Positions 19,826-59,828 of a DNA stretch of 64,000 bases are shown one piece after another (positions within the stretch are counted from its first letter, which is position 1; the number at the start of each line of letters is the position of its first letter). The stretch is from positions 141 to 64,140 of the forward strand of contig CAZNDH010000008.1 of assembly GCA_964571765.1 (NCBI GenBank), read 5' to 3'. The translations under genes and the position numbers were made by a program. This DNA is from an uncultured Acidimicrobiaceae bacterium (GTDB lineage Bacteria; Actinomycetota; Acidimicrobiia; Spongiisociales; ZC4RG35). Under the pieces are notes generated by a model. It saw only the letters and a list, made by a program, of their open reading frames with translations. It made no database searches and was not told where the DNA came from.

Positions 19826-20863
19826 TCAACCGGTAGATGGAGCCGCCGACGGGTCCCGGGCCTCGGTCATCCCCGGGTCCTCGTCGGGCCCCTCCCCAGG
19901 CTCCTCGCCGTCGCCCCCGTCCGGGACATCGGCGAGGCCACAGTCGACCAGGACCGTCTCGGTGTCGCCACCGCCGAAGCGCACCCGCTCGAAGGCGACC
20001 ACCGCGGCCAGTTGCTCCTCGCTGAGAGCACCTCCGAATCCGGGCATGACGCCCCCACCGCCGACCGGCTTGTCGGTGTCCCCGTAGGTTCCCCGGCCCG
20101 CATTCTGGAACCCGGTCGTTCCCAGGTTGACCCACTCGATATGGTCGGAGCAGGCCCCAAAGGTGGTGATCACCCCGGTCATGGGGAGCGCCACGCCTCC
20201 CTGGCCCTGGGCGCCGTGGCAGGAGGAGCAGTTGACGCCTCCCACCGCACCGCCGGCATAGATCGTCCCCCCGATGGCGATGAAGTCCTGACCGTCGGTC
20301 GCCGGCGTCCTCCCGGTGAACTCGGAGCCGTCGCAGTCGACGATCTCGCCGGTGATCACGTCGGTTCGCAACTCTGTGGCCTCTCCGCACTCGCCGGTGG
20401 CCGCCCCACCCAGGGCGAACAAGGCGATGAGGGGGGCTGCGAGCAGAAGGGAGGTCAGCCAGCGAGGGATGGCGGTGTTGGTTCGCTCCCTGATCCCGGC
20501 GGTGGGCACGGTGATCACCTCAGGGAGGTGGGCCGCCTCCCGGGATGTGACTTCGGCGGGCGGGGTGGCCACGGTGGCCGCCACCGGGGCTGGTGTCGTC
20601 GGTACCGGGGGCGCTGGGGACGCTTCCGGCTCCTCAGATGGGGCCGCCTCCTCGCTGGGCGGCTCCGCCGGGGGCGCCGTCTCAACAGTGGGCTCGGGCA
20701 CACCGGAGACACCGGTGGCGGGGATGTCACCACCGCCGGCCCAGGCGGTGAGCACCTCATCGACGGTGGCGCCGGTCTCGGCTGCCCTGGCCGCGGCGGA
20801 GCGCTGCACCAGGGGCTCGGGAAGGCCCATGACGGCGGCGGCTGCGCTGAGAAGCTCGCTCAT
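19826..20863 (-). CDS. Membrane-anchored monohaem c-type cytochrome (CcoP-like) with N-terminal cytoplasmic module
   Basis: A single haem-c motif CSSCHG and a VMPGFGGALSEEQLAAVVAF class-I cytochrome c tail. One TM segment (WLTSLLLAAPLIALFAL). The stop-start overlaps the upstream gene. Confidence 0.75.
   Translation of the reverse strand: MSELLSAAAAVMGLPEPLVQRSAAARAAETGATVDEVLTAWAGGGDIPATGVSGVPEPTVETAPPAEPPSEEAAPSEEPEASPAPPVPTTPAPVAATVATPPAEVTSREAAHLPEVITVPTAGIRERTNTAIPRWLTSLLLAAPLIALFALGGAATGECGEATELRTDVITGEIVDCDGSEFTGRTPATDGQDFIAIGGTIYAGGAVGGVNCSSCHGAQGQGGVALPMTGVITTFGACSDHIEWVNLGTTGFQNAGRGTYGDTDKPVGGGGVMPGFGGALSEEQLAAVVAFERVRFGGGDTETVLVDCGLADVPDGGDGEEPGEGPDEDPGMTEARDPSAAPSTG
20729..20863 (-). 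repeat. About 135-nt segment duplicated at 21487-21621 (5' ends of the two cytochrome c genes)
   Basis: The two stretches align by eye at high nucleotide identity (not computed). They encode SELLSAAAAVMGLPEPLVQRSAAARAAETGATVDEVLTAWAGG and SELLSAAAAALGLPEPLVRRSAEARAAETGTTVDEVLTAWAGG. Confidence 0.8.
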
Positions 20864-21621
20864 CGGTCGCCCATGGTTACCGACTCGGAGAGATAGGCGA
20901 CCAGCGCCTCGAGATGTTCCTCACGGAGGTTGTGGGGAGGATGGCCCCCCGCACCGGCCACCACTGCGGCGGTCTCGGCCTGATTGAGACGGGCGCCCAC
21001 GTTGGCCAGGTCGGGGCCGAAACGACGTGAGCCCAGGACCTGGTTGGTGTCGTTCAGAGTGACGGCGCCCAGTCCGACGTCGGCGATCACCGGCCGGACC
21101 ATCTGGGTGTGGCAGGCGGCACATCCGAGGTTGACGTAGACCGAGCGGCCCTCCTCTGCCAGGGCACCGAAGGGGAGCGCCGAGGTGCGTTCGCCTGGGC
21201 TGTCGATGGGCACCGACGGTCCGATCAACGCCACCAGCAGCACCACCAGGAACAAACCGACCACCCCGGCGAACATCTTGAGCGGTTTGTCGGCCGCACC
21301 AACCAGCACTGGAGGCCTGTAGGGAACCATGGCCTCCTCGGGGAGCTCCTCAGCCGCCGGTGGTGTCGGGGCGGTGGGAGGAGGCGCCTCGGGCGTCGCC
21401 GGGGCCTGATCCCCCTCCGGTGGGACACCCTCATCCACCGGGGATTCCTCGGCCTCGCCTGCAGTTGGGGAGGCAGTGGGTGCCGGGGCACCACCCGCCC
21501 AGGCGGTGAGCACCTCGTCGACCGTGGTCCCGGTCTCGGCGGCCCGGGCCTCGGCCGACCGGCGCACCAGGGGCTCGGGGAGCCCGAGGGCGGCGGCGGC
21601 TGCACTGAGCAACTCGCTCAC
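20860..21621 (-). CDS. ccoO: CcoO-like monohaem cytochrome c subunit (cbb3 oxidase subunit II family)
   Basis: GRSVYVNLGCAACHTQMVRP and LGSRRFGPDLANVGAR match CcoO/FixO signatures. GTG at 21621 forms a GTGA overlap with the CcoN-like stop. The track's longer N-terminus overlaps that gene. Confidence 0.75.
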   Translation of the reverse strand: MSELLSAAAAALGLPEPLVRRSAEARAAETGTTVDEVLTAWAGGAPAPTASPTAGEAEESPVDEGVPPEGDQAPATPEAPPPTAPTPPAAEELPEEAMVPYRPPVLVGAADKPLKMFAGVVGLFLVVLLVALIGPSVPIDSPGERTSALPFGALAEEGRSVYVNLGCAACHTQMVRPVIADVGLGAVTLNDTNQVLGSRRFGPDLANVGARLNQAETAAVVAGAGGHPPHNLREEHLEALVAYLSESVTMGDR

Positions 21622-23054
21622 GAGCTCTGCTCCACGGTGACCAGCATCTCCTGGGTGCGCGCCGGGCCCCTGACCACCGTCCCCAGGATGGTTGAGGCGT
21701 AGGCCGCATGACCGAGGAAGGCGATCAGCGATGCGCCCAAGGCGAACAGCAGGAAGGTGTCGACCACCGGCCCGGCTCCGGCCCCCCATCCCTCCCCGGC
21801 ATCGACATAGGCGCCCGAGTTGGACCCGGCTATCCAGGAGTAGCCGCTGACCAGCCCGGCGGCGGTGAGGAACACCAGGACGCCGATGGAGCCGATCAGG
21901 GTGAGGCGTATGAAGCTGCGGGCTCGCCTCGGCGAGGGCATGTCCCTGCCGATCAGTCGGGGCAGTGCGGCAAAGGACACCCCGGCGACGAGCAGGACGC
22001 CGACCCCGGCGATGGCGGTGTACTCCACCGCCTCCCAGAAGGAGGTGAGAGTGGCCACCGCCGCCACCGAGCGGAAACCGGCTATGGCGGCCAGGGCGCC
22101 CACCCCGGCGGCGAGGAAGAGCCCGTACACCCCGGCGGACACCCCCGGGTGGTCACCGAGACGCGACCAGGAGCCCTCCAGCGTCAACGATACGTTGGCC
22201 GCGTTGGCCACGGCACCGATGGGGAAGGCCAGGCCCAGGGCGGCGGCGACACCGGCCAGCCAGCCGGGCCCCGGCCCGAAGATCAACTGGGCAGTGCCCC
22301 ACCAGACCGAGGCGAGGCCAAGTGACCAGAACCCCACCGCGGCCAGGGTGCGGCTGGCCAGTGGGACGTCCAATTCCCTGACGACGGTGTAGTAGAAGAC
22401 CCCGGTGCCCAGCGTCATCACAACCATGGTCACCAGACCGGCGGCGAGGAACATGTCGTTATAGGCCATGGCCACCGGGGTGAGGAACGGCGAGTGCCCG
22501 GCGGCGTAGGCCGCGTAGAGCAAGGGAAGCCAGGTGACCCCGCCCAGGACGAACCAGATGGTCACATACGAGTGCTTCTCCTCCCGCTCTGCGATGGTAC
22601 GGGCGGTGACCAGGAACGGCACTGCCAGCACCCCCACCATGGGGAGGTCGATCCACCAGGGGAGGGAGAACGGCTGGCGGCCGCTACCCAGCCCCAACCC
22701 GATGACGACAACCCCAAGTAGGACCAGGCCAGCTGTTCCGAGGAGCCCCAGTCCAGCGAGACGAGGGTTCCACAGCCTGACCCCGGTCAACCTGGGAAGC
22801 ACGTAGTACACCCCACCAACCAGAGAGATCACCCCGAATCCGAGGAGTAGGACCAGGTTCGCCATCGGCTCGAGCCGGCCGAAGCTGATCAGGGAAAGGC
22901 CGGCGAAGCGGAGCGAGGCCAGGGAGAGCACCGCGAGCAGGCTGCCTGCCACAAGGAACAGTGCCCCGACCACGAAATGGGTGACCGCCACGCGGTCCCC
23001 CTCGGCGCCACCGCCGAGGATGGCCCTGATGTCGGTTGTTCGGGTGCCGGTCAA
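21618..23054 (-). CDS. CcoN-like haem-copper oxidase subunit I homologue lacking canonical His ligands
   Basis: A 478-aa, 12-TM-like protein. Blocks SFGRLEPMANLVLLLGFG, YYVLPRL, LPWWIDLP and EEKHSYVTIWF resemble cbb3 CcoN. The protein has only 5 His, with no HH or HxH pair (see findings). Confidence 0.75.
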   Translation of the reverse strand: MTGTRTTDIRAILGGGAEGDRVAVTHFVVGALFLVAGSLLAVLSLASLRFAGLSLISFGRLEPMANLVLLLGFGVISLVGGVYYVLPRLTGVRLWNPRLAGLGLLGTAGLVLLGVVVIGLGLGSGRQPFSLPWWIDLPMVGVLAVPFLVTARTIAEREEKHSYVTIWFVLGGVTWLPLLYAAYAAGHSPFLTPVAMAYNDMFLAAGLVTMVVMTLGTGVFYYTVVRELDVPLASRTLAAVGFWSLGLASVWWGTAQLIFGPGPGWLAGVAAALGLAFPIGAVANAANVSLTLEGSWSRLGDHPGVSAGVYGLFLAAGVGALAAIAGFRSVAAVATLTSFWEAVEYTAIAGVGVLLVAGVSFAALPRLIGRDMPSPRRARSFIRLTLIGSIGVLVFLTAAGLVSGYSWIAGSNSGAYVDAGEGWGAGAGPVVDTFLLFALGASLIAFLGHAAYASTILGTVVRGPARTQEMLVTVEQSS

Positions 23055-23292
23055 ACGTCTTCCTCACAAGGGACGAGACGGCGGGAGCTTAACCCGGCGA
23101 TCCGTCGCACTCGCCTTGGTGCCTGGAGGGAATGGCCAACGGCTGAGAAGACGTCCTCTCCTCCCCGCCCAGTCGTGTCGGAGGTGCGGGGTCGCATCCA
23201 GAGGTACTCCACGCCGAACTCAGGGTGCCGGGTGTTTTGTGGTACAAACATCGTGACAGGGGATCGAGAGACGCGAGGTCCCGACACCAGCC

Positions 23293-23925
23293 ATGTACCG
23301 CCTTGCAGAACTGAGCGACACCCGGCGCCGAACCATCGGTGCAGCCCTGCTGATCGCCGGGCTCCTCGGTTTGGTGGTAGGGGTAGTCGTCATCCACTGG
23401 GCCTCCTTTCCCGAGACCGAGGTGGTCAACGGGCTCGAGGTCCCGGTGGTGGTCGACTACCTGAACTGGTTCCCCAGGGGCTCACTGTGGCTAGGGCTCG
23501 GTTATCTCATCGTCTTCGGGGCAACCAGCCTGGCCCTGGTCGGTGGCACATTCCTCTGGGTCCTCAACCAGAAGATGACCTGGGCCCGGGCCACCATCGC
23601 GGCCATGCTCACCTGGATAGCCCTGGTCTTCTACCTGGGGATGGTCCCCTCGGAGTTCCTCACCTTTGCCCAGACCGACCTCGACTGGTCGTCCCAGCGG
23701 ATCGCCATCACGATTCCACCGATCCTGGTCCTGGGCAACGAGATCGACATCAGCTGGGCAGCGGTACGCGACTCGATCCAAGCGGGATACAGCATGGGCA
23801 TGTTGGGGCTGGCCATCGTGCTCGGGCTCCAGATTCAGAAGATCAAGGACGGCAGGCCGGCCAAGGCGCAGCCCTCCGAGTTGCTCTCCCCCTATGGTCG
23901 GCCGCTGCTGAGGGGTGACCGCTGA
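23293..23925 (+). CDS. Polytopic membrane protein, first gene of the b6c-type operon
   Basis: ORF track entry with 4-5 hydrophobic helices. TGATG overlap with the ferredoxin gene. I recognise no family. Confidence 0.5.
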   Translation: MYRLAELSDTRRRTIGAALLIAGLLGLVVGVVVIHWASFPETEVVNGLEVPVVVDYLNWFPRGSLWLGLGYLIVFGATSLALVGGTFLWVLNQKMTWARATIAAMLTWIALVFYLGMVPSEFLTFAQTDLDWSSQRIAITIPPILVLGNEIDISWAAVRDSIQAGYSMGMLGLAIVLGLQIQKIKDGRPAKAQPSELLSPYGRPLLRGDR

Positions 23926-24374
23926 TGCCCAGAGGCGTCGTCGACGAGACCCCGCCGATCAGGGATGACTACCAGCTGGCACTGGTGGAGGGCGACTACT
24001 TCGCCGACAAGCTGCGTCCCAAGCAGTTTCTCCACATCGACCAGTCGGAGTGCATCCTCTGCGAGGGGTGTGTCGACATCTGCCCATGGAAGTGCATCCA
24101 CTACCTGTCGCTCGACGCCATTTCCGAAGGGGTCAACGTCGACCATCCCGCCGACGATGCGCAGAACTACGGCTTCTTCATCGTCGACGAGGACGAGTGC
24201 ACCCGATGTGCCCTGTGCATCGACCGCTGTCCCACCGGGGTGATCTCCCTGGGCAAGTTCGAGGGCTCGCTGGCCGAACAGGCCGCCGAGCTGGGGCTGG
24301 ATCGCCGTCCCTGGGACTTCGACACCGGCCAACGTGACTTCAAGAACGGCTACTCGTACGGTATGCGCTGGTAG
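23925..24374 (+). CDS. 2[4Fe-4S] ferredoxin-like protein
   Basis: Two cluster motifs: CILCEGCVDICP and CTRCALCIDRCP. Confidence 0.8.
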   Translation: MPRGVVDETPPIRDDYQLALVEGDYFADKLRPKQFLHIDQSECILCEGCVDICPWKCIHYLSLDAISEGVNVDHPADDAQNYGFFIVDEDECTRCALCIDRCPTGVISLGKFEGSLAEQAAELGLDRRPWDFDTGQRDFKNGYSYGMRW

Positions 24375-24383
24375 GGAGGTGTA

Positions 24384-25160
24384 GTGGCCAACGGCAACGG
24401 GAGAACGGGTCTGAAGGACCGGGTGAAGGAGGCCCAGGAAAAGCTCTGGGGCTCACAGGTGGTTGATGCCATCCTCCGCCCGGGGTCTCCCTTCAAGCAG
24501 GGCTACCAGGACAGTCCGCGGAACCGCTCCTACGTGGTCATGAACAACGTCCTCTACCACCTGCACCCGGTCAAGGTGAAGCGCCACGGGGTGAAGCTCT
24601 CCTACACGTTGTGTCTAGGCGGGCTCAGCTTCTTCCTCTTCATCCTGCTCACCATCACCGGCATCTTCCTCATGTTCTATTACACCCCGACCACCGAGCT
24701 CGCCTACGCCGACATCGAGCGTCTCTCCACCGACGTGGCCTTCGGGACCATGGTGCGCAACCTGCACCGTTGGGGGGCCCACCTCATGGTCCTATCGGTG
24801 TTCCTCCACATGAGCCGGGTCTTCTACCACGGCGCCTACAAGCCGCCCCGTGAGTTCAACTGGGTGATCGGGGTCATCCTCCTCTTCCTCACGCTGTTCC
24901 TCTCATTCTCGGGGTACCTGCTCCCCTGGGATCAGCTCGCCTACTGGGCTGTGACCGTGGGCTCCAACATGGCGGCGGCTTCACCGGTTATCGGCGACCA
25001 GGTCCAGTTCGCCCTGTTCGGAGGGGTGGAGGTCAGCGGGGCCAGCCTGCTCCGCTTCTATGTCCTTCACGTGCTGGGCTTTCCCTTCATCATCGTCATC
25101 TTCATGGCCGTCCATTTCTGGCGTGTCCGCAAGGACGGCGGGATCTCGGGGCCTCTGTAG
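24384..25160 (+). CDS. petB: Cytochrome b6-like (N-terminal four-helix half of cytochrome b)
   Basis: GGGAGG lies upstream of the GTG start. The motifs RNLHRWGAHLMVLSVFLHM, YLLPWDQLAYWA and LHVLGFPFIIVIFMAVHF supply the haem-b ligand histidines. Confidence 0.9.
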   Translation: MANGNGRTGLKDRVKEAQEKLWGSQVVDAILRPGSPFKQGYQDSPRNRSYVVMNNVLYHLHPVKVKRHGVKLSYTLCLGGLSFFLFILLTITGIFLMFYYTPTTELAYADIERLSTDVAFGTMVRNLHRWGAHLMVLSVFLHMSRVFYHGAYKPPREFNWVIGVILLFLTLFLSFSGYLLPWDQLAYWAVTVGSNMAAASPVIGDQVQFALFGGVEVSGASLLRFYVLHVLGFPFIIVIFMAVHFWRVRKDGGISGPL

Positions 25161-25168
25161 GTGTAGCC

Positions 25169-26110
25169 ATGGTGGACATACCCGAAGACCTTCTGAGGAG
25201 ATCTGCGGAGGCCAAGGCCCGCGCCTTGGGCGTCCCGGTTGAGGACGTCCTCGCCGAGATGAAGGGGGAGGGCCCTCCGGTGGAGATCCCCCCACCCGAC
25301 GAGCCGCCCGCACCGGAGACCGCCGAAGAGGTCGCCGCGGAGACCGAGCCTGATCCGGAGCCGGTCCTCGAGGTCCCACAGGAGGACCAGCCCGACGCCG
25401 AGGTCGAGGTCGAGGCCGACGGCGATCAGGAGGTGGACCCGGAGGAGCCCAAGGTGGCGGTCTACGACGAAGAGCCGGTCCCCGAGCCCGAGCCGGTGGC
25501 GGCACCGCCTCCGGGCAACGGAGGGGGCCGGGTGGCCGCGTTGGTGACCCCGCGTCCGGTGGTTCCACCCACCGGTGTCCCTGAAGGGGTCCGTACCCAG
25601 CGCCTGCTCACCGTGGTCAAGGCGCGGGCCATCCAGAACGTCAAGGCCGAGCCCAGCGACAAGGTCAACACGTGGCCCCACCTGATGCTCCTCGAGTTCG
25701 GTGCCCTGCTCGCCATAACCGGCCTCTTGGTGATCATGGCGGTGGTAATCCACTCGCCCTTGCTCGACCCGGCCAACCCCAACGCCACACCCAACCCATC
25801 CAAGGCGCCCTGGTACTTCCTCGGCCTCCAGGAGCTGCTCAGCTACTTCGACCCTCAGATCGCCGGTGTGATGATCCCGCTGTTCATCGGGATCATCGGC
25901 TTCATGGCAATACCCTTCGTCGACAAGAACCCGTCCACCCGGCCCAGTGACCGCAAGTTCGCCATCATGCTGTACTCGATCTTCCTCGCCGGGTCGGCCA
26001 CGCTGACCATTTTCGGTGTCCTCTTCCGAGGTCTCGGGTTCAACTTCTCCTATCCGTGGCGGGACGGGATCTTCTTCGACGACCTACTCGACTGGGTGCA
26101 CTTCGAATGA
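25169..26110 (+). CDS. petD: Cytochrome b C-terminal half (subunit IV-like) with long acidic N-terminal extension
   Basis: PSKAPWYFLGLQELLSYF is the PEWY-type Qo motif region. The N-terminus MVDIPEDLLRRSAEAKARALGVPVEDVLAEMKG repeats the module seen on the two cytochrome c genes. Confidence 0.85.
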   Translation: MVDIPEDLLRRSAEAKARALGVPVEDVLAEMKGEGPPVEIPPPDEPPAPETAEEVAAETEPDPEPVLEVPQEDQPDAEVEVEADGDQEVDPEEPKVAVYDEEPVPEPEPVAAPPPGNGGGRVAALVTPRPVVPPTGVPEGVRTQRLLTVVKARAIQNVKAEPSDKVNTWPHLMLLEFGALLAITGLLVIMAVVIHSPLLDPANPNATPNPSKAPWYFLGLQELLSYFDPQIAGVMIPLFIGIIGFMAIPFVDKNPSTRPSDRKFAIMLYSIFLAGSATLTIFGVLFRGLGFNFSYPWRDGIFFDDLLDWVHFE

Positions 26111-26991
26111 CCTTCACCAACATGGTCCTGATCGGGGTGGCCGTCTTCGCCATCCTCGGCGCCATCGGAGCCTTCACCATCGCCTTCCGCCGCTCCCAGG
26201 CAGCCAGACCCCGGTCACCGGTGGAGGGGGTCTCCGAGGAGACCAGGCGGGCCGATCGCTCCCTGGTCGGGGTGAGGGTGGAGCCGATTGTGGTGGAGAT
26301 GGCCGAGCCGGAAGCCGAGGTCGAAGAGGGGCCCGAAGAGGTCGAGGAGCCGGACGCTGTCTCGGTCCGGCTGGTCGAGTCCCAGCGAGTGATCGAGGTC
26401 TCCCCCGAGGAGTCCGGAGTGAGCCGGCGCCAGTTCTTCAACCGGGCGATGAACGCCACCTTCTTCTCCTTCCTCGGCTTGATGGGAGTGAGCTCCCTGG
26501 CGATGTTCTGGCCCCGGCTGACCGGAGGGTTCGGAGCGGACATCGACGCCGGTGGGGTCACCGACCTGCAGACCCAGGTGGTGGCTCCCGACGGCTCGGT
26601 GGTGCCGGTGTTCGTCCCCGAGGCCCGGGCCTACGTGGTACCGGCACCCGACACCCTCTCCGAGCAATTCGTCGACCAGCCGGTCGCCGCTGCCGGCCTG
26701 ATGGCCCTCTTCCAGCGTTGTGTTCACCTCGGATGCCGGGTGCCCTGGTGTGCCACGGCGGTCGGCTTCGAATGCCCCTGCCACGGTTCCCGTTACAACG
26801 CCATCGGCGAGTACTTCGGAGGCCCCGCCGGCCGTAACCTCGACCGCTTCGCCGTCGAGCTCAGCGGCGACCGGTTCATCATCCGCACCGGGACCATCAT
26901 CGAGACCCCTCGCGCCCCCGCCCTCTCGGTGGCCTACCCGCAGGGCCCGAGTTGCATCGGCGTGGTCGGAGAGGACGAGGAAGACCACTAG
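26107..26991 (+). CDS. Rieske [2Fe-2S] protein
   Basis: ATGA overlap with the previous gene. The motifs CVHLGC and CPCHGS are present, with an internal SRRQFF twin-arginine-like segment. Confidence 0.9.
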   Translation: MTFTNMVLIGVAVFAILGAIGAFTIAFRRSQAARPRSPVEGVSEETRRADRSLVGVRVEPIVVEMAEPEAEVEEGPEEVEEPDAVSVRLVESQRVIEVSPEESGVSRRQFFNRAMNATFFSFLGLMGVSSLAMFWPRLTGGFGADIDAGGVTDLQTQVVAPDGSVVPVFVPEARAYVVPAPDTLSEQFVDQPVAAAGLMALFQRCVHLGCRVPWCATAVGFECPCHGSRYNAIGEYFGGPAGRNLDRFAVELSGDRFIIRTGTIIETPRAPALSVAYPQGPSCIGVVGEDEEDH

Positions 26992-27007
26992 TGGGGCCGA
27001 TGCCGGC

Positions 27008-28705
27008 ATGACCACCGAGATCATCACCGTCCTCGCCGTTATTGCCGGGATCGCCTGGCTCGGTGTGATGCTGGTCGCCGCATTCCGCAACCGCGGAGGC
27101 GAGGAGGTCCCCCCCAACCTGCAGCCCGGGATCGATGACCAGCAACTCGAGACCCGGCGGCTCGAGGGTGGTCAGAAGGCGGCGATCGTCTTCTCCGCCT
27201 TCCTCGCGGTGGCCCTCCCCCTCCATTTCCTCTCTGAGCCCAGCCGCCAGGCCGGCTTCGTCGAGGAGTTCGCCGAGGCCTCGGTGTCCCGGGGCGAGTC
27301 GCTGGCAATCGAGTTCGCTTGCTTCAGCTGCCACGGCCCCCTCGGGGCGGGCGGGGTGGCTCGTTTCGTCGAGCAGCGTTCCGGGGTGACTGTGGACTGG
27401 TTGACCCCCCGGCTCGACGACATCTTCTACCGCTACGGCGACGACGAGGTGGCCTTCTGGATCACCTATGGCCGTCCCAACACCCCGATGCCTCCTTGGG
27501 GCCTGGCCGGGGGTGGCCCGATGAACGAGCACCAGGTGCAGGATTTGGTCAGCTACTTGCGCACCATCCAGCGACCCCAGCAGGAGGTGGCGAACCAGGC
27601 GGCCGCGGCCCCGGGCAGCGAAGCGGCCCGGCTAGCCGGTGCCGACGCCGCGGTCGAGGCGGCGATCATCGACCAGTTGCAGGTGATAGCCGAGATGGAC
27701 CAGGCGCCCGAGGACCTCGCATTCGTTGGTCCTCTCGCCGAGAGAGCTCGCCAGGTCTTTGACGGGGCAGGCTCCGGCTTCGACACCGATGCCGACGGGC
27801 TCAGCGACGTCGCCGAAGTCGAGCTCACCGAGATCTCTGAGGCCGCCTATCTGTACTTCCAGGCGTTCGATCCCATCCAACTCGACCCCGAGGTAGCCGA
27901 CGCAGAGCTATTCGACGAGGCGATGGATCGGCTCCGCCAGGCGGCTCAGCGGGATCCGATCCTCCGCCCCCAAGTGGACGTCATCGAGAGAATCCTGGAG
28001 ACCGCCGAAGGGGAGGACACCGACGGCGACGGCATCCCCGACGCCGCCGAGACCCGGATCAACGCCCAGCTGACCGAGGCGGCCAGGGCGACCATCCCCG
28101 GTGAGGTGGCGACGGTGGTCCGTCTCGATCCGTCCAACCCGGAGACCACGTCGGGAGTGCCCGACCGCACCGCGGCGAGCAGGCTGGTGGGCGCACTGGA
28201 GTCGGTGGCGGTGGCCAAACGGGTCCTGGTGGAGAACGAGGACCGGATCAGGCCGGCCGAGGAGGCCGGGCTCGCCTTCCTTCGTCAGGCCCAACGAGAA
28301 CGGCGGTGGGATGTCGATGTCCCCGGTGTCGCCGCCGCCATGGGAGCCACCGAGGGGGAGGCTGCTCGAGCGGTCGGGCTGTTCAACGCCAACTGCGCCC
28401 GTTGTCACACCGCCGGCTTTTCGGCCGGCATGGCCTTCACCCAGGAGGTCGGGTCCGGTGGCTTCGGCCCGGCCCTATGGGAAGGCCGGCCGGTGGTCCA
28501 GTTCGGCGAGGCCCCCACCGACGAGACCCAGACCGACCTGTTGGTCGATTTCCTAACCAACGGCTCGGAGCCTCAGCGGCCCTACGGGCTCAACGGGGTG
28601 GGCACGGGCCGGATGCCAGGGTTCGGTCCCGTACTCCCGGAGTCCGACATCGAGCTTCTCGCTCGTTACCTGAGATCGGGCAACCTCAGCGGGAGGGAGG
28701 AATAG
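27008..28705 (+). CDS. Membrane-anchored dihaem c-type cytochrome (QcrC-like) with about 250-aa insert between the haem domains
   Basis: Haem motifs CFSCH (27320-27334) and CARCH (28394-28408). N-terminal TM segment. The start ATG at 27008 is in frame within track ORF 26720-28705. Confidence 0.8.
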   Translation: MTTEIITVLAVIAGIAWLGVMLVAAFRNRGGEEVPPNLQPGIDDQQLETRRLEGGQKAAIVFSAFLAVALPLHFLSEPSRQAGFVEEFAEASVSRGESLAIEFACFSCHGPLGAGGVARFVEQRSGVTVDWLTPRLDDIFYRYGDDEVAFWITYGRPNTPMPPWGLAGGGPMNEHQVQDLVSYLRTIQRPQQEVANQAAAAPGSEAARLAGADAAVEAAIIDQLQVIAEMDQAPEDLAFVGPLAERARQVFDGAGSGFDTDADGLSDVAEVELTEISEAAYLYFQAFDPIQLDPEVADAELFDEAMDRLRQAAQRDPILRPQVDVIERILETAEGEDTDGDGIPDAAETRINAQLTEAARATIPGEVATVVRLDPSNPETTSGVPDRTAASRLVGALESVAVAKRVLVENEDRIRPAEEAGLAFLRQAQRERRWDVDVPGVAAAMGATEGEAARAVGLFNANCARCHTAGFSAGMAFTQEVGSGGFGPALWEGRPVVQFGEAPTDETQTDLLVDFLTNGSEPQRPYGLNGVGTGRMPGFGPVLPESDIELLARYLRSGNLSGREE

Positions 28706-29062
28706 ATGTTCCGTGAGCTGTTCCGATCCCTGCTCTCGGCGAACATGTTCGTCACCGGGATCATCCTCACCCTGGTCTCGGTCCTCCTCTTCTACGGGTC
28801 GATGTATCTGTTCAACTACACCAACTTGGGCAAGAAGCTCGGCTTCTTGGTGACCGGTGCCGCGGTCTTCGGCTGGTTGTCGATCAGCTCACTCCTGTTC
28901 GTGGTCTACGCCCCACGGGGTCCCCGTCCGGCGAGCATCGAGGGGCTCAACGCCTTCGAAGTCCGGATCATCCCCCTCACCTACCTCATGGTCGCGGCGG
29001 TCCTCTTCTTGGTATTCCTCACCGCCCTCCACCAGTACGAGGAGACCCGCGAAGGCGACTAG
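28706..29062 (+). CDS. Small three-TM membrane protein, last gene of the b6c-type operon
   Basis: The ATG comes immediately after the upstream stop. Three hydrophobic helices. Confidence 0.5.
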   Translation: MFRELFRSLLSANMFVTGIILTLVSVLLFYGSMYLFNYTNLGKKLGFLVTGAAVFGWLSISSLLFVVYAPRGPRPASIEGLNAFEVRIIPLTYLMVAAVLFLVFLTALHQYEETREGD

Positions 29063-29152: not shown

Positions 29153-29761
29153 TCAGCCGTAATAGCTGAGGATTTGGAGCTCGTGGGAAAGGTCGACCTG
29201 TCGCACCGCCACCGACGGGGGCACATCCACCCTGACCGGGGCGAAGTTGAGGATCGAGGTGATCCCGGTGCCGACCAGGGCGTCGGCCACCTTCTGGGCA
29301 GCCCCGGCAGGCACCGTGAGAATGGCCATGTCGAACAACTCGGCGGCGCGGTCCTCAGGCATCAGATCCAGAGAGCGCACCTCGATTCCCGAGACCTTCT
29401 CGCCGATCCGTCTCGGGTCGACGTCGTATATGACTGCCACGTCGAATCCCCTCCGAGTCAGGCCGGAGTACCGGGCCAGGGCAGTCCCCAGGTTGCCGGC
29501 GCCGAAGATCGCGACCCGCCGACGCTTCTCGATGCCCAGCTCCCGGCGTATCCGATCGCGTAGGTTGGCCGCTGGATAACCCACCCCGCGGATCCCCTGG
29601 AAGCCGAGCGCCGCCAGGTCCCGCCGGACGTTGGCCGCGGTCACCCCTCCGGCCTCGGCCAGCTCGTCGGAGCTGACCGTTTCCCGGGAGCCGTTGCCGT
29701 CTTCGAGGAGACGCAGATACCTGGGGAGCCTGACCACGGTGGCCCGGGAGAGGTGAGTCAT
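29153..29761 (-). CDS. rex: Redox-sensing transcriptional repressor Rex
   Basis: MTHLSRATVVRLPRYLRLLE..., VTAANVRRDLAALG and the Rossmann motif VAIFGAGNLGTALA. The upstream part of track ORF 29153-30427 is antisense to the next gene. Confidence 0.9.
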   Translation of the reverse strand: MTHLSRATVVRLPRYLRLLEDGNGSRETVSSDELAEAGGVTAANVRRDLAALGFQGIRGVGYPAANLRDRIRRELGIEKRRRVAIFGAGNLGTALARYSGLTRRGFDVAVIYDVDPRRIGEKVSGIEVRSLDLMPEDRAAELFDMAILTVPAGAAQKVADALVGTGITSILNFAPVRVDVPPSVAVRQVDLSHELQILSYYG

Positions 29762-29830
29762 CGACAGGCGACGATACATCCGCTCACCGGTTCTGCTTTC
29801 TGCCCGGGCGCCTCCTACGCTCGGGACTCG

Positions 29831-50416: not shown

Positions 50417-50422
50417 CGAGGT

Positions 50423-50469
50423 GTGCATTTGCACGGAGGTGCGAAAAGCGCGACCTGGTGCATATGCAT
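50423..50469. repeat. Left repeat module: palindromes GTGCATTTGCAC and GTGCATATGCAT, 35 bp apart
   Basis: 50423-50439 (GTGCATTTGCACGGAGG) is the perfect reverse complement of 51424-51440. 50449-50469 (CGCGACCTGGTGCATATGCAT) is a 19/21 direct repeat of 51455-51475. Confidence 0.8.
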
Positions 50470-50548
50470 GCCCAGCTCGAGGGGGTTGAACCGGTTGGTG
50501 TGGTCGAGCAGAGTCGGGCGTGTGGGGGATCGTCGTCGGATTGACGCC

Positions 50549-51454
50549 ATGGCTTCACGGCAGTACGGGGTGTTCAACACCCGGCAGGCCCGCGAGGCCG
50601 GCTTCGACAAGAGCGCCGTCATGCGCCGGCTGGCGTCGGGGGAGTGGCTCAGGCTCGACCCCAGCGTGTACTGCGTCGCCTCCGCTCCTCCCAGATGGGA
50701 GCGGAGCCTGGCGGCTGCCGTCCTCAGCCGTAGTAACGCCCTGGTCACCGGTGGCTCGGCAGCGTGCCTTCACGGTCTACGCGGTTTCAGTCCCGGACGC
50801 CCGGTGATCATGGTGCCGATCGGCTCCAATGCCCGGTCGGAGATCGCCGACGTGGTTCAGGCGAAGAGGTTCGACTCGGTCGCCAGAACCCGTGTTAGTG
50901 GGTTCGAGGCGACCACGGTGGCCGAGACCCTGTTGGTGTTGGCCCGCACCCTCCCGGAAAGCAGAGTGGAGGCGGTCTTCGACGACGCCCTTCTCTCCAA
51001 GAAGATGAGGCTGAGCGAGTTGGAGGTGCCGCTGGCCAGAGAGGTGGCCAGCCGGGCAAAGGGTTTGTCGCTGATCCGTCGGCTCGTGGCCGAACGTCAT
51101 CCCCTGGCGCCCAGCCTTGACTCGACCTATCTGGAGGCAATGTTGGAGATGGTGCTGAGCGGGGCGAGCCTGCCGCCCTGGACCCGCGAGTACCGGTTCC
51201 GGATCCGCGGGGCATCACCGAGGGTCGACGTGTTCATCCCGGCGTGGTCACTGGTCGTCGAGGCCGACGGCCGCAACTGGCACGCCCGTCGCTCGGACTT
51301 CGAAAAGGACCGCAAGCGGGACAACAGCCTGGCCACTAAGGGCATACAGGTCTTACGGTTCACTTACGAGATGCTGGAGTCCGATCCAGGCGGGTGCCTC
51401 GACACCATCATCCGCACCGGTTCCCTCCGTGCAAATGCACTGGGGCTCGGATAA
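50549..51454 (+). CDS. AbiEi-like N-terminal wHTH domain fused to DUF559 (Vsr-like endonuclease fold) domain
   Basis: The N-terminus is GVFNTRQAREAGFDKSAVMRRLASGEWLRLDPSVY. The C-terminus is VDVFIPAWSLVVEADGRNWHARRSDFEKDRKRDNSLATKGIQVLRFTYEML. Confidence 0.75.
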   Translation: MASRQYGVFNTRQAREAGFDKSAVMRRLASGEWLRLDPSVYCVASAPPRWERSLAAAVLSRSNALVTGGSAACLHGLRGFSPGRPVIMVPIGSNARSEIADVVQAKRFDSVARTRVSGFEATTVAETLLVLARTLPESRVEAVFDDALLSKKMRLSELEVPLAREVASRAKGLSLIRRLVAERHPLAPSLDSTYLEAMLEMVLSGASLPPWTREYRFRIRGASPRVDVFIPAWSLVVEADGRNWHARRSDFEKDRKRDNSLATKGIQVLRFTYEMLESDPGGCLDTIIRTGSLRANALGLG

Positions 51455-53504: not shown

Positions 53505-54078
53505 GACCACGGCCAACCCGCTCCAGGATCTCGCCGACCGGGTGACCGGGTCGGTTGGCGGGACTTCCGAGATCCAGTTCGACACCATCAAGGTGCGGGT
53601 CCCCATCACCGACTGGGTGGAGGCCCACCGCAAAGCCCGCGAAGATCTCGGGCTGGTCTTTTTCTCCTGGCTGTCGGCGATCGACTGGGCCAATCAGGTG
53701 GAGGCGGGCGATCCGCTCGGCGAAGAAGTCGAGGAGAGGCTGGAGTTGCTCACCACCCTGTCGGACATCACCGAGGGACATCGGGTCACATTCTCCACCG
53801 ACCTGCCCCGGGAGGAGGCGTCGATCCCCACCCTGGTGGAGGTGTTCCCCGGGGCCAACTGGCATGAGCGGGAGGCTCACGAGATGTTCGGCATAGTCTT
53901 CGAGGGCCATCCCGACCTGAGCCATCTCTACCTCCCCGACTCATTCATCGGCCACCCGTTGCGCAAGAGCTATCCACTGCTGAGCCGGGAGGTCAAGCCA
54001 TGGCCGGGCACGGTGGACGTCGAGGCGATGCCCGGCGAGGACGATGACCAGCCGACCACCGAGAACCCGGAGGCCTGA
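53485..54078 (+). CDS. nuoC: NuoC-like subunit (operon 2)
   Basis: [39 protein letters not shown]. Confidence 0.9.
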
Positions 54079-55268
54079 TGGCGCTCGACGCCGACACCGT
54101 TCGCCACCTCAGCGAGGCCACCGTCTCGGTCGAGTTGGAGACCGGGGACATGACCCTCAACATCGGGCCCCAACATCCCTCCACCCACGGCGTGCTCCGT
54201 CTGGTGGCCCGGGTCGACGGGGAACGGGCCTTCGACGTCAAGCCGGTGATCGGGTACATGCACCGGGGGTACGAGAAGTTGGTCGAGGTGCGGACCTACC
54301 CCCAGATCACCACCATCATCAACCGGATCGACTGGGTGTCGGGATACGCCAACGAGGTCCCATTCATCGTGGCAGCCGAGAAGCTGATGGAGCTCGAGGT
54401 CCCCGAGCGGGCCCAGTACATCCGGCTGATCCTCACCGAGATGGCCCGGATGTCGTCGCACTTGGTGTTCATGGCCTCCTACCCCCTGGAGCTGGGGGCA
54501 GCCACCCCGCTCTTCTTCGCCCTCCGGGAGCGGGAGCGGATCCTCGACCTCCTGGAGAGCGTCACCGGTGGAAGGTTCCATCCCAACTTCAACCGAATCG
54601 GTGGGGTCAAGCCGGCATACGGCGCCGGGTCGTCCACCCGCAAGATGGTCCAGGACCTGCCCGCAGGGTTCCTCGCCGAGACCCGGGCTGCCATGGACCG
54701 GGTGGGCGAGGTTTGTGACGAGCTGGAGGCTCTGGTCGCCGGGAACGAGATCATCCTGGCCAGGACCAAGGGAGTGGGTGTGATCCCACCGGAGGTGGCC
54801 GCCGCCTACGGGGTGTCCGGGCCCAACCTGCGGGCATCGGGGGTGTCCTTCGATCTACGCCGGGTGGAGAATTACCTTCCCTACGACGATTTCGACTTTC
54901 GGGTGGTCACCGCGGAGAACGGCGACAGCTGGGACCGCTGGTGGGTCCGGCTCCAGGAGATCCGTGAGTCCTCGAAGATCGTCCAGCAGGCCATCGACGG
55001 GATCCCCGCAGGCCCGCTCCAGGCAAAGGTGCCCCGCATCATCAAGGTGCCCAAAGGGGAGACCTACGTCCGGGCGGAGAACCCCAAGGGGGAAATGGGG
55101 TACTACCTGGTATCCGACGGTGGTCTGGGGCCCTACCGGCTCAAGATCCGCTCGGCCAGCTTCTCCAACCTCTCCATCCTCCCCTGGGTTCTGGAAGGCG
55201 CCCTGGTCCCCGACATCATCGCCATCATGGGCTCGTTGGACTTCGTTTTGGGGGACGTGGACCGATGA
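54078..55268 (+). CDS. nuoD: NuoD-like subunit (operon 2)
   Basis: NIGPQHPSTHGVLRL, and a C-terminus ending ...LGDVDR. Confidence 0.95.
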   Translation: MALDADTVRHLSEATVSVELETGDMTLNIGPQHPSTHGVLRLVARVDGERAFDVKPVIGYMHRGYEKLVEVRTYPQITTIINRIDWVSGYANEVPFIVAAEKLMELEVPERAQYIRLILTEMARMSSHLVFMASYPLELGAATPLFFALRERERILDLLESVTGGRFHPNFNRIGGVKPAYGAGSSTRKMVQDLPAGFLAETRAAMDRVGEVCDELEALVAGNEIILARTKGVGVIPPEVAAAYGVSGPNLRASGVSFDLRRVENYLPYDDFDFRVVTAENGDSWDRWWVRLQEIRESSKIVQQAIDGIPAGPLQAKVPRIIKVPKGETYVRAENPKGEMGYYLVSDGGLGPYRLKIRSASFSNLSILPWVLEGALVPDIIAIMGSLDFVLGDVDR

Positions 55269-55285
55269 TTCGGTTTGTCGTGGTG

Positions 55286-55345
55286 CTTGGTACTTGGCGC
55301 TTGGTACTTGGACCTTCCCGGTACCCGGTACCCAGTACCCAGTAC
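55286..55345 (+). repeat. GTAC-core tandem repeats in the nuoD2-nuoH2 spacer
   Basis: 2 x CTTGGTACTTGG (55286-55297 and 55300-55311), then CGGTACC CGGTACC CAGTACC CAGTAC (55319-55345). The two arms are imperfectly complementary. Confidence 0.85.
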
Positions 55346-55368
55346 AGGGCGCGCAGAAAGGCCACGCA

Positions 55369-56373
55369 GTGGAGTTCTTGACCGACCTCCTCTCCAATTT
55401 CTGGATCGCCTTGGCGGCCAAACTGGCCCTGGTCGCACTGATGATCCCGCTCCTCGGGATGGCCATCGGATTCGCCGAGATCAAGCTGTCGGCAAAGATG
55501 CAGGCTCGGATGGGGCCCTATTTCGCCGGAGGTCGCTGGGGCTGGGCCCAGTTGATCGCCGACGGGATCAAGTTCTTCCAGAAGGAGGACCTCATCCCCG
55601 AGGAAGCCGACCGCCCGGTGTTCAAGCTCGCCCCGCTGGTGGTGATGGTGGGCACGGTTGCGTTATTCGTGGTGATCCCCTTCGGGCCCGGCCTGATCTT
55701 TCGCGACCTCTCGGTGGGGATCTTCTACGCCCTCGCGATCTCCTCGCTGAGCACCGTGGGGGTGCTCATGGCCGGCTGGTCGTCGGCCAACAAGTACTCC
55801 CTTCTCGGTGGTCTGCGCGCCGCAGGCCAGCTGATCGCCTACGAGGTGCCCCTGGTGTTCGCCGCGGTCGGTGTGGTGATCATGGCGGGGACGATGAGCA
55901 TGGCGGGGATCGTCGAAGCCCAGATCAACGCGGGATACCCCTTCGTCATCTTCCAGTTCATCGGATTCGCCATCTTCATCATCGCCTCCCTTGCCGAGCT
56001 CTCCCGAATCCCCTTCGACCTCCCCATAGCCGAGTCGGAGCTGGTCATGGGGTACCTCACCGAATATTCCGGGTTCCGCTTCCTCTTCTTCTTCCTCGCC
56101 GAGTTCGCCAACATGTTCACTCTGTCGGCGATCGCGGTCACCTTGTTCCTCGGCGGCTACTGGCTGCCCGGGATCCCCGAGGGCATCCTCGAGTTCGCCG
56201 GCCCGGCGATCCTCATCGGCAAGGTGTTCCTCCTGGTGTTCGCCATGATCTGGTTCCGCTGGACCTTCCCCCGGTTCCGCCAGGACCAGCTCCAGACCCT
56301 GGCTTGGAAGTGGTTGATCCCCATCGCCCTGGTCAACCTGACCCTGACCGGGATCTTCAAGGTGGTGCTGTGA
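55369..56373 (+). CDS. nuoH: NuoH-like subunit (operon 2)
   Basis: GTG at 55369 follows GAAAGG. AEIKLSAKMQARMGP, GWSSANKYSLLGG and RIPFDLPIAESELVMGYLTEYSG. Confidence 0.9.
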   Translation: MEFLTDLLSNFWIALAAKLALVALMIPLLGMAIGFAEIKLSAKMQARMGPYFAGGRWGWAQLIADGIKFFQKEDLIPEEADRPVFKLAPLVVMVGTVALFVVIPFGPGLIFRDLSVGIFYALAISSLSTVGVLMAGWSSANKYSLLGGLRAAGQLIAYEVPLVFAAVGVVIMAGTMSMAGIVEAQINAGYPFVIFQFIGFAIFIIASLAELSRIPFDLPIAESELVMGYLTEYSGFRFLFFFLAEFANMFTLSAIAVTLFLGGYWLPGIPEGILEFAGPAILIGKVFLLVFAMIWFRWTFPRFRQDQLQTLAWKWLIPIALVNLTLTGIFKVVL

Positions 56374-56870
56374 TGACGACCGAGCCGAGGCGCAATATCC
56401 CCGGCCGGGGGTTGCTCAAAGGGATGGCGGTGACTTTCGGCACCATGGTGCGCACCATCTTCCGTCCCAAGCGTTACCTGCGGACGGTCAACTACCCCAA
56501 GGACAAGGAAGTCCCGGTACCCCGGGCCCGGGGGGTGATCGCCCTCGACCAGGAGGCGTGCACGGTGTGCATGCTCTGCGCCCGGTCCTGTCCCGACTGG
56601 TGCATCTACATCGAGGGTCACAAGGAGGAGATCCCGCCGGACAAGCCTGGCGGCCGGATCAAGGTCCGCTCCAAGCTCGACCGGTTCGACATCGACTACG
56701 CCCTGTGCATGTACTGCGGGATCTGCGTCGAGGTGTGTCCCTTCGACGCATTGTTCTGGAGCCCGGAGTACGAGTACTCCGAGCCCAACATGGGCGCCAT
56801 GCTCCACGACATGGACCGTCTCCAGGACTGGCTGGAGACCGTCCCTGACCAACCTGGGCTCGAGAAGTGA
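56373..56870 (+). CDS. nuoI: NuoI-like subunit (operon 2)
   Basis: CTVCMLCARSCP and CMYCGICVEVCP. Confidence 0.9.
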   Translation: MTTEPRRNIPGRGLLKGMAVTFGTMVRTIFRPKRYLRTVNYPKDKEVPVPRARGVIALDQEACTVCMLCARSCPDWCIYIEGHKEEIPPDKPGGRIKVRSKLDRFDIDYALCMYCGICVEVCPFDALFWSPEYEYSEPNMGAMLHDMDRLQDWLETVPDQPGLEK

Positions 56871-57418
56871 GCTTCGGGGACTGGATCGGGGAGCCTGTCA
56901 ACTGGGTTTTCGCTGCAATCGGGGCGGGCATCCTCTTCGCCGGGCTCAGGGTGGTCACCGCCCCCAACCTGGTGCACGCCGCCCTCTACCTGGTTGCCAC
57001 CTTCGCCGGGATCGCCGGGTTGTTCCTCATCCTCTCCGCCGAGTTCGTCGCCTGGGCCCTGGTGCTGATCTACATAGGGGCGGTGGTGGTCCTCTTCCTC
57101 TTCGGGATCATGATCACCAGGGCTCCCACCGGGGTCGACGAGGGTCTCAGCGCCCAACATCGGATGGGGCCTGCGGTGCTCGCCGCCGGGCTGTTCGCCC
57201 TGATGGCATGGACCGCCTTCCAGGCGTTCGGTACCGACGCCCTGATCGCCACCGGTCAACCCACCGAGACAGAGGTGCTCGGCCGGGCCCTGCTGGGCAG
57301 GTTCGTCATACCCTTCGAGGTGGTCGGCTTCATCCTGCTCGCCGCCCTCATCGGCGGCATCACCATCGCCCGCCGAGACCTCACCCCGGCAGAAGAGGAA
57401 GAGAGGGCATCGGTGTGA
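56867..57418 (+). CDS. nuoJ: NuoJ-like subunit (operon 2)
   Basis: GTGA overlap with the previous gene. VTAPNLVHAALYLVATFAGIAGLF...LIYIGAVVVLFLFGIM. Confidence 0.9.
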   Translation: MSFGDWIGEPVNWVFAAIGAGILFAGLRVVTAPNLVHAALYLVATFAGIAGLFLILSAEFVAWALVLIYIGAVVVLFLFGIMITRAPTGVDEGLSAQHRMGPAVLAAGLFALMAWTAFQAFGTDALIATGQPTETEVLGRALLGRFVIPFEVVGFILLAALIGGITIARRDLTPAEEEERASV

Positions 57419-57720
57419 CCCTTATCCAGTTTCTCATCCTCGGTGCCGGACTGTTCTCGCTTGGGGTCTACGGGCTGCTGGTGAGGCGGAACATCGTGCT
57501 CATCCTCCTCTCCGTCGAGCTGATGCTGGCCGCGGTCAACATAAACCTTGTGGCCTTCGAGGCGTTCCTGGTCACCTCCGAGGCCATCGGTCAGGTCTTC
57601 GCCCTCTTCGTGATCACCGTGGCCGCCGCCGAGGTGGGCATCGGCCTGGCCATCGTCCTGATGATCTTCCGCAACCGGCGGTCCGCCAACGTCGACGAGC
57701 TCTCCCTGATGAGGTGGTAG
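57415..57720 (+). CDS. nuoK: NuoK-like subunit (operon 2)
   Basis: SVELMLAAVNINL...AAAEVGIGLAIVLMIFR. Confidence 0.9.
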   Translation: MTLIQFLILGAGLFSLGVYGLLVRRNIVLILLSVELMLAAVNINLVAFEAFLVTSEAIGQVFALFVITVAAAEVGIGLAIVLMIFRNRRSANVDELSLMRW

Positions 57721-57784
57721 TGATGGGCTCGCTCGGCCCGCTGTCTTTCGTACTTGGTATCAGGTGCCAGGAGATGGGCTCGTG

Positions 57785-59806
<2,022 letters not shown>

Positions 59807-59828
59807 GTTATGGAGGAGAGGCCTAGAG

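Follow-up and report, generated by a model that had tools for sequence, protein, structure and literature searches.

What role could be left for the core subunit of a respiratory oxidase in which none of the cofactor ligands remains? Subunit I of the heme-copper oxidases (HCOs) is known from textbooks as the catalytic center of aerobic respiration and the site of cofactor binding, and the question is raised by a gene at positions 21618..23054, on the minus strand, of a 64,000-nucleotide stretch of contig CAZNDH010000008.1 from an uncultured Acidimicrobiaceae bacterium (the whole stretch is hereafter called the window). The gene encodes a 478-amino-acid (aa) CcoN-like protein with 12 predicted transmembrane (TM) helices. 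An earlier note on this DNA had delimited it correctly (the strand is here corrected to minus) and claimed that the protein had lost every heme and CuB histidine while its c-type cytochrome partners stayed intact. We refer to this gene and its product as N′, and to the CcoO-like and CcoP-like members of the same minus-strand operon as O′ and P′. We establish the predicted fold of N′, the loss of its ligands, the purifying selection that acts on it, and its linkage to a divergently transcribed operon for a cytochrome b6/Rieske complex. With a little better than even confidence, we propose that N′ is a dead, cofactor-free descendant of CcoN that scaffolds the hemes c of O′ and P′ in an electron relay linked to that complex.

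Homology and Predicted Fold of N′

Sequence searches placed N′ in the CcoN lineage, as had been claimed from inspection of the sequence. The Pfam COX1 profile matched residues 21-410 (E = 1e-23; 84 bits, cut-off 34.8), a single-sequence phmmer comparison aligned N′ with the CcoN of Pseudomonas stutzeri (3MK7_A) at E = 1.4e-17, and a profile of 26 family members, searched with hmmsearch against the Protein Data Bank (PDB), recovered the same chain at E = 5e-22. The solved structures matched in these searches were cbb3 CcoN chains only. Under the curated NCBIfam equivalog model for ccoN (TIGR00780), N′ scored 90.6 bits, well under the cut-off of 583.15, which leaves it outside the equivalog group. 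Motifs common to N′ and CcoN comprise YY..PR, R..K/R.YV..W, YY..V, GFWSL, W.G, GP.P.W, and P+L.GR.

An AlphaFold2 (AF2) model of N′, built on the 26 family members, reached a mean predicted local distance difference test score (pLDDT) of 85.6 and a predicted TM-score (pTM) of 0.88, and contained 12 long helices. When this model was compared with solved structures using Foldseek, the top matches were cbb3 CcoN chains, with TM-scores of 0.85/0.87 and E = 1.4e-16 for 3MK7 chain A. A-type and B-type oxidases and the nitric oxide reductase (NOR) subunit NorB ranked far lower, with E-values of about 1e-8 to 1e-9 for the A-type and NOR structures and about 8e-9 for NorB. A fused N′O′ protein from a distant clade (P0165), modeled on its own alignment, gave comparable values (pLDDT 81.5, pTM 0.87), and its N′ part matched cbb3 CcoN at a TMt of 0.86-0.89. 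According to these models, N′ has the 12-helix subunit I fold of the C-family oxidases, that is, the cbb3 CcoN fold.

Loss of the Heme and CuB Ligands

The six ligand positions were mapped with three independent alignments, obtained with phmmer, with the profile hmmsearch, and with MAFFT on 105 full-length sequences including canonical CcoNs, and all three returned the same mapping. Given in P. stutzeri numbering, the heme b ligands H60 and H347 correspond to A65 and Y345 of N′, the heme b3 ligand H345 corresponds to V343, and the CuB ligands H207, H257, and H258 are replaced by A205, A255, and Q256, respectively. By these alignments, all six heme/CuB positions of N′ are devoid of His. The hand alignment on which the earlier note had based the same conclusion deviates from the computed mapping by at most one residue. 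Recounting the translated frame also agreed with the note on the five His residues of the entire protein (H26, H161, H187, H302, and H449) and on the absence of both HH and HxH. Two full-length orthologs (P0074 and P0082) have a single His each in the whole protein, and an alignment artifact is therefore ruled out as the source of the missing ligands. The best explanation of these alignments is that N′ cannot bind heme b, heme b3, or CuB and, lacking a ligand for each of them, would be unable to reduce either O2 or NO.

The replacements extend beyond the ligands. The cross-linked Tyr of the canonical active site (Y251, located in TM7) corresponds to S249 of N′; this column holds Ala, Ser, or Gly in 81 orthologs and Tyr in 95% of the canonical representatives. 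The retained YY pair of N′ (Y221/Y222) was considered as a candidate for the cross-link Tyr and rejected, as HMMER maps it to Y222/Y223 of P. stutzeri. The Ca-site residue E122 is Q127 in N′, the heme propionate residue R57 is E62, and the proton pathway residues S240, H243, Y317, N333, and H337 appear as A238, G241, A315, A331, and T335. Y223 and T215 are the only ones kept among the Ca-site, propionate, and proton pathway positions mapped.

Purifying Selection in Acidimicrobiia

A protein that has shed all its catalytic residues and that scores far under the CcoN equivalog threshold could be the product of a decaying pseudogene, or a functionless annotation artifact. Its gene has the opposite appearance. 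The reading frame is intact, starting at a TTG codon preceded by a GAGGA ribosome-binding site, and its G + C content at third codon positions (GC3, 0.87) is typical of genes in this window of approximately 67% GC, in line with the earlier description of the gene as intact and codon-typical; its AF2 model, moreover, is confident. In a scan of one genome per Genome Taxonomy Database (GTDB) species, relatives were found in 130 species, and the best 80 loci, nearly all labeled as metagenome-assembled genomes (MAGs) of Acidimicrobiia or Actinomycetota, were fetched and found to keep the gene order. Over 293 ortholog pairs of at least 80% identity, the ratio of nonsynonymous to synonymous substitution rates (dN/dS, NG86 method) of N′ had a median of 0.104 (range 0.03-0.18), with no disruption of the frame. 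The values for comparison were 0.051 for the ferredoxin, 0.071 for the cytochrome b6, and 0.09 for the 210-aa membrane protein of the neighboring operon, 0.10 for a neighboring reductase, 0.13 for O′, and 0.21 for P′. Consistently, 105 of the 478 positions of N′ are conserved at 97% or above across the 81 orthologs, and of the His residues only H26, where TM1 begins on the cytoplasmic side, is conserved. N′ is under strong purifying selection, and the loss of its ligands has been retained under it. The intact frame, the low dN/dS, the conserved gene order, and the occurrence in 130 species refute the pseudogene or artifact explanation, to which we assign next to no probability.

The protein has diverged much faster than its redox neighbors. 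Over 45 species, identity to the window sequence has a median of 61% for N′, against 85% for the cytochrome b6 and 91% for the ferredoxin, and in distant lineages it amounts to 26-33% for N′ versus 70-80% for the cytochrome b6.

A Large Ligand-Less Clade

A profile search of 1.84 billion representatives at 50% identity returned 941 matches at E ≤ 1e-3, of which 79 reached E ≤ 1e-30; the 105-sequence alignment comprises the window protein and those of the best 150 matches that are full-length. All six His residues are present in 22 of these sequences, none in 67, and the remaining 16 are partial. In a crude neighbor-joining tree with midpoint rooting, the window protein groups with the 66 other ligand-less sequences; most of the ligand-less sequences fall on one side of the tree, and a few are found among canonical clades. 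Natural CcoN-CcoO fusions of 620-700 aa with one CxxCH are numerous in the ligand-less set. Taxonomic assignment reached the close group only, which consists of Acidimicrobiia MAGs. The earlier note had suggested that this locus would represent a new kind of respiratory module; an intact ligand-free homolog is indeed present, and it belongs to a large and deep ligand-less family rather than standing alone.

Some of the CcoN(O) relatives exhibit partial ligand loss (P0215, P0223, P0256, P0249, P0222, and P0247). Among the patterns of the six positions, HQAKEH, HEAPHH, and SQHEHH keep heme ligands and have lost CuB ligands, and HHHHHM carries Met in place of the last His. These relatives may represent other unrecognized HCO variants or intermediates toward the complete loss.

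In the 67 ligand-less sequences, a conservation of 75% or above is reached by 41 columns, 38 of which hold the canonical CcoN consensus residue, forming a framework of the Gly, Pro, Trp, Tyr, and Arg residues of the CcoN motifs. The three columns specific to the clade are Gly, Pro, and Gly, and at that level the ligand-less clade shares no polar or charged position of its own. The ligands, N208, Y251, E122, Y317, H337, and the equivalents of R57 and R437 are all unconserved. With 38 of 41 columns canonical and Gly, Pro, and Gly as the sole novelties, the alignment indicates that the clade as a whole kept the CcoN shell without acquiring a shared new polar site.

The Acidimicrobiia subfamily differs from the clade as a whole in one respect, since the former active site of its 81 orthologs harbors a conserved polar cluster formed by Q256 (invariant), E344 (98.8%), Y345 (91%), and N66 (91%). 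With this cluster in view, N′ might be regarded as an ion- or proton-conducting channel, derived from the emptied oxidase shell and working with the b6/Rieske complex in energy coupling or gating. The membrane-embedded E344, together with Q256, N66, and Y345, lies near the outer side at the former heme/CuB site, Arg occupies the H257/H258 positions in many other ligand-less clades, and the strong purifying selection would suit a conducting protein. The canonical C-family pathway, however, has been dismantled, with Ala or Gly in place of S240, H243, Y317, and N333 and with unconserved Y317 and H337 columns clade-wide, and the candidates for a substitute differ among subclades, none being conserved across the entire clade. 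The proton channel that the earlier note had listed among three possible functions finds no support in this comparison, and we regard a channel role in general as improbable.

The same residues bear on a second possibility, namely, that N′ binds heme, a metal, or a quinone through ligands other than His and has acquired a new catalytic or electron-transfer role fed by the heme of O′. Y345 stands at the H347 position, M64 lies next to the H60 position, and E344 and Q256 are conserved in the subfamily; such a cofactor would also provide the O′ heme with an acceptor, for which no other candidate is obvious within the complex, and the relatives that hold heme ligands and lack CuB ligands make intermediate electron-transfer forms plausible. 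Yet M64 is conserved in just 74% of the subfamily, the columns corresponding to Y345, E344, Q256, and M64 hold F, L, I, T, A, W, or E in other ligand-less clades, and the second-shell residues for the propionates and Ca (equivalents of R57, E122, and R437) are unconserved. A non-His cofactor site seems to us quite doubtful on this evidence. A different active site, another of the functions suggested for this protein, finds no support in the clade at large, where the novel columns are Gly, Pro, and Gly, and might at most apply to the Acidimicrobiia subfamily with its conserved N66, Q256, E344, and Y345.

The Cytochrome c Partners and Their Shared Domain

Immediately downstream of N′, O′ (20860..21621, minus strand) encodes a CcoO-like membrane-anchored monoheme cytochrome c of 253 aa, followed by P′ (19826..20863, minus strand), which encodes a membrane-anchored monoheme cytochrome c of 345 aa. 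The N′ stop codon overlaps the GTG start of O′ in a GTGA at 21621, and the O′ stop codon overlaps the ATG start of P′ in an ATGA; N′, O′, and P′ therefore form a translationally coupled three-gene operon. The coupling to a CcoO-like gene and the CAACH, GSRRFGPDL, and CSSCH motifs of the downstream cytochromes were correctly read in the earlier note, and the motifs are kept in the orthologs. In nearly every clade sampled, O′ is either adjacent and translationally coupled or fused to N′; in one locus (L090), the gene downstream of N′ has no detectable FixO domain.

In O′, a novel cytoplasmic domain at the N terminus is joined by a Pro/Ala/Glu-rich linker to a TM helix, which is followed by the heme-binding region with CAACH and GSRRFGPDL. 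It matches the Pfam FixO profile at E = 1.4e-12 and scores 45 against TIGR00781, whose cut-off is 200. The alignment with 3MK7_B covers residues 8-117 of 203, a stretch that runs from the TM helix to GSKRTGPDL and includes CxxCH; in place of the C-terminal half of CcoO, O′ has a short tail. An adjacent CcoO-type monoheme subunit, with the TM anchor and with CxxCH and GxxRxGPDL conserved in its orthologs, thus accompanies N′. The place of the Met ligand in the O′ subfamily is occupied by GGH227PP with an invariant H227, whereas the O′ domains of the ligand-less fusions retain the canonical WS(I/T)MPSY Met-ligand motif. This pattern suggests a switch of the heme c ligation from His/Met to His/His through H227. 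The claim that the CcoO-like cytochrome is intact accordingly holds for its motifs, with the qualification that the heme is probably ligated by His/His, not His/Met, in this subfamily.

P′ shares the N-terminal domain of O′, again followed by a linker and a TM helix, and exhibits a conserved CSSCH and a conserved MPGF Met-ligand motif. It matches Pfam Cytochrom_C, and the ccoP model TIGR00782 matches weakly (E = 1.6e-4) over the last heme domain. With its single CSSCH, P′ is not a diheme CcoP.

A hidden Markov model (HMM) of the shared domain was built from the first ~45 residues of the O′ and P′ orthologs. The domain, with a consensus of roughly SxLLSAAAAALGLPExLVxRSAxARAAETGxSVDEILAxWAGG, is carried on long Pro/Ala/Glu-rich linkers and has no Pfam match even at E ≤ 10. 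Within the window, the HMM matched only three open reading frames, namely P′ (3e-25), O′ (5e-25), and the N terminus of the subunit IV of the divergent b6/Rieske operon (3e-8). The topology of CcoO and PetD argues that all three domain-bearing N termini are cytoplasmic. The three-gene pattern recurs in 61 of the 86 loci with any match, and where O′ is fused to N′, leaving no free O′ N terminus, subunit IV carries three to four tandem copies of the domain (L081, 6733-7956; L083, 6797-7960). This covariation between the two operons provides the best hint from sequence of a physical or functional coupling between their products.

Linkage to a Divergent b6/Rieske Operon

The operon at 23293-29062 is tightly packed and transcribed divergently from N′. 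It starts with a conserved membrane protein of 210 aa (23293..23925, plus strand, as are all genes of this operon), which has no match in Pfam, even at E ≤ 10, or in NCBIfam, and which occurs in all 80 loci as well as, in the form of an unannotated small protein, in distant clades. It is followed by a 149-aa 2x[4Fe-4S] ferredoxin-like subunit (23925..24374; Pfam Fer4 families), a 258-aa cytochrome b6-type subunit (24384..25160; Pfam Cytochrome_B, E = 2e-50), and a subunit IV (PetD)-like protein (25169..26110; Pfam Cytochrom_B_C) whose long N-terminal extension starts with the ~45-aa domain. The NCBIfam ExtP model scores the cytochrome b6 at 298.5 bits, above its equivalog cut-off of 290. A Rieske [2Fe-2S] protein (26107..26991; Pfam Rieske) overlaps subunit IV by an ATGA and precedes a membrane-anchored diheme cytochrome c (27008..28705; CFSCH and CARCH). 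The last gene encodes a small membrane protein of 118 aa (28706..29062) that has no Pfam match even at E ≤ 10; a gene equally devoid of Pfam matches lies 3′ of the cytochrome c gene in L081, L083, L085, and L091, a correspondence of position only. Taken together, the subunits encoded at 23293-29062 look like an uncharacterized ferredoxin-bearing b6c-type complex. As a separate observation, the linker between the two heme domains of the diheme cytochrome c contains thrombospondin type-3-like Ca-binding repeats (DTDADGLSD and DTDGDGIPD).

The divergent layout of N′O′P′ and the b6/Rieske operon is present in all of the 80 Acidimicrobiia loci, wherever the contig extends far enough. It is also found in distant ligand-less clades with rearranged flanks, comprising the fused loci L081-L084 and L085, L086, L090, and L091; in L087, L088, and L089 the upstream flank is too short to judge the layout. 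N′ is genetically linked to the ferredoxin-bearing b6/Rieske operon, and this linkage to what the earlier note had called the neighboring bc-type complex extends to close and distant clades alike.

In several of the distant loci, maturation genes lie between or beside the two operons. ResA/ResB/CcsA are inserted between them in L085 and cytochrome c maturation (ccm) genes in L090, and on short contigs N′-O′ adjoins System I ccm genes in L087 and System II genes (ResA/ResB/CcsA) in L089, the maturation genes of L087 and L090 being ccmE/F/H and ccmABC. This proximity would fit a role of N′O′, for instance as a holding platform, in the assembly or maturation of c-type cytochromes or of the b6/Rieske complex, in which case N′O′ would not be a stable subunit of the electron transport chain. 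No maturation genes are adjacent in the window or in the 80 close loci, however, and such genes commonly cluster with the cytochromes that they serve, which makes the proximity nonspecific. O′ is, in addition, a heme c protein with a conserved heme site, which suits a redox subunit. A maturation role consequently strikes us as very unlikely.

The two operons are separated by a 238-bp divergent intergenic region (23055..23292), presumed to be a shared promoter region, which contains the imperfect palindrome TTTGTGGTACAAA at ~23236-23248. A Rex-type operator (TGTGA-N6-TCACA) with up to one mismatch has no occurrence in the window. A gene for a Rex-like repressor is located nearby (~29153-29800, minus strand); the designation is based on its N-terminal sequence and on the Put_DNA-bind_N and CoA_binding matches of syntenic genes in related loci.

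A Scaffold in an Electron Relay?

How can the retention of an emptied oxidase core be reconciled with its linkage to these cytochromes? We infer a scaffold and relay function for N′O′P′. In the mechanism that we propose, N′, a catalytically dead protein that keeps the 12-helix fold and the pairing with a CcoO-type heme c subunit, would serve as a membrane platform holding O′ and P′, with one heme c each, at the outer face of the membrane. O′ and P′ on N′ would thereby constitute a membrane-bound two-heme cytochrome c module. This module might be tied functionally, and probably physically, to the ferredoxin-cytochrome b6-subunit IV-Rieske-diheme c complex acting as a menaquinol:cytochrome c oxidoreductase, and could relay or buffer electrons between the b6/Rieske complex and a genuine terminal oxidase encoded elsewhere. 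The conserved columns of the ligand-less clade are nearly all CcoN framework and N′ evolves much faster than the cytochrome b6, a combination that favors a scaffold. Of the functions listed in the earlier note, the scaffold is thus the one toward which the data lean, as a function deduced from conservation and gene context.

Several points weigh against this proposal. For a pure scaffold, N′ is heavily constrained, with its dN/dS of 0.10 and its 105 near-invariant positions, and the polar Q256, E344, Y345, and N66 of the old site make a residual or new function possible there. The ligation by H227, if real, probably lowers the potential of the O′ heme and would make it a poorer fit to a high-potential relay. 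The 64-kb window contains no other HCO gene. Within the class, moreover, gene order is conserved beyond the respiratory genes, and synteny is weak evidence there.

A more far-reaching proposal can be made from the same material. The N′ shell and its two cytochromes c might, along with the b6/Rieske complex and its ferredoxin and with the shared domain, represent an unrecognized type of respiratory supercomplex of Acidimicrobiia and related lineages, in which the emptied core is not inert, N66, Q256, E344, and Y345 binding a noncanonical cofactor or a cation or conducting protons, such that a dead oxidase would have given rise to a new energy-coupling or catalytic function. We deem this unlikely, though worth stating.

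Comparison with Known Systems

The scaffold and relay proposal for N′O′P′ departs from the CcoNOP system of P. stutzeri (3MK7) in its absence of catalysis, and the locus is comparable to that system in the 12-TM fold and in the N-O-(P-like) gene order with translational coupling. O′ resembles the cbb3 CcoO in its N-terminal TM helix, CxxCH, and GxxRxGPDL. Unlike the cbb3 CcoN, N′ lacks the six His residues, Tyr251, Glu122, and most of the proton pathway residues; unlike CcoO and CcoP, O′ has no C-terminal half and carries His for Met, and P′ has one heme where CcoP has two. The novel cytoplasmic N-terminal domain of O′ and P′ is likewise foreign to the cbb3 subunits.

Tethered cytochromes c connecting bc complexes with oxidases are exemplified by cytochrome cy in the CIII2CIV supercomplex of R. 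capsulatus (PDB 6XKW) and by the diheme QcrC of the actinobacterial bcc-aa3 supercomplexes. The role suggested here for N′O′P′ would similarly be that of a tethered heme c relay from a Rieske/cytochrome b complex, as used where no carrier diffuses freely in the organism or complex. The anchor differs: cytochrome cy and QcrC are either held by one TM helix or integrated in the bc complex, whereas N′ is a complete 12-TM oxidase shell with an operon of its own. A cofactor-poor core subunit also has a parallel in the cytochrome bd family, where the CydA′ of the archaeal CydAA′ is reportedly, in work by Murali et al. from 2021, a paralogous core subunit that has lost its heme ligands. CydA′ and N′ would both be core subunits of respiratory oxidases retained under selection as cofactor-poor structural partners. 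They belong to unrelated folds and superfamilies, and CydA keeps the catalytic hemes, which leaves CydAA′ a working oxidase, while the N′ module keeps no O2-reducing site.

Among the HCOs with altered active sites, the eNOR, bNOR, sNOR, gNOR, and nNOR families keep an active site with heme and metal ligands, the largest departure being the exchange of a metal ligand, as in gNOR with Asp for His (PMC11214002). N′ shares with these families active-site residues that differ from those of O2 reductases. In contrast to the NOR families, it has no ligand at all, and its structural match to NorB is weaker (E ~8e-9).

In the searchable literature, whose coverage is incomplete, we came upon no account of a ligand-less CcoN family, although an earlier mention is possible. 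NCBIfam has no dedicated model for the family, and at NCBI and JGI these proteins are labeled "cbb3-type cytochrome c oxidase subunit I". One study lists cbb3 oxidases from annotation for apparently actinobacterial MAGs, whose taxonomy and family membership are unconfirmed (PMC8357290). Counting members of the ligand-less family, which would be cofactor-less derivatives of the C-family oxidases, as cbb3 oxidases may falsify the inference of high-affinity microaerobic O2 respiration in Acidimicrobiia. A ligand-free clade of this size and depth, under strong selection and with a CcoO partner, would amount to a second, noncatalytic life of the oxidase scaffold and provides a tangible example of how a pseudoenzyme evolves within a respiratory complex. 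The locus further points to an uncharacterized ferredoxin-containing Rieske/cytochrome b6 complex and to a new tethered cytoplasmic domain, both of which are experimentally tractable.

Other Features of the Window

Two complex-I-type clusters are encoded downstream on the plus strand. The first, at 31849-~47000, is an operon from nuoA onward that lies beside the respiratory island, and the second, at 54048-63136, includes a 49-kDa-like subunit and three antiporter-like (Proton_antipo_M) subunits. Between them, a gene at 50417-51454 (plus strand) combines AbiEi antitoxin and DUF559/REase-like domains.

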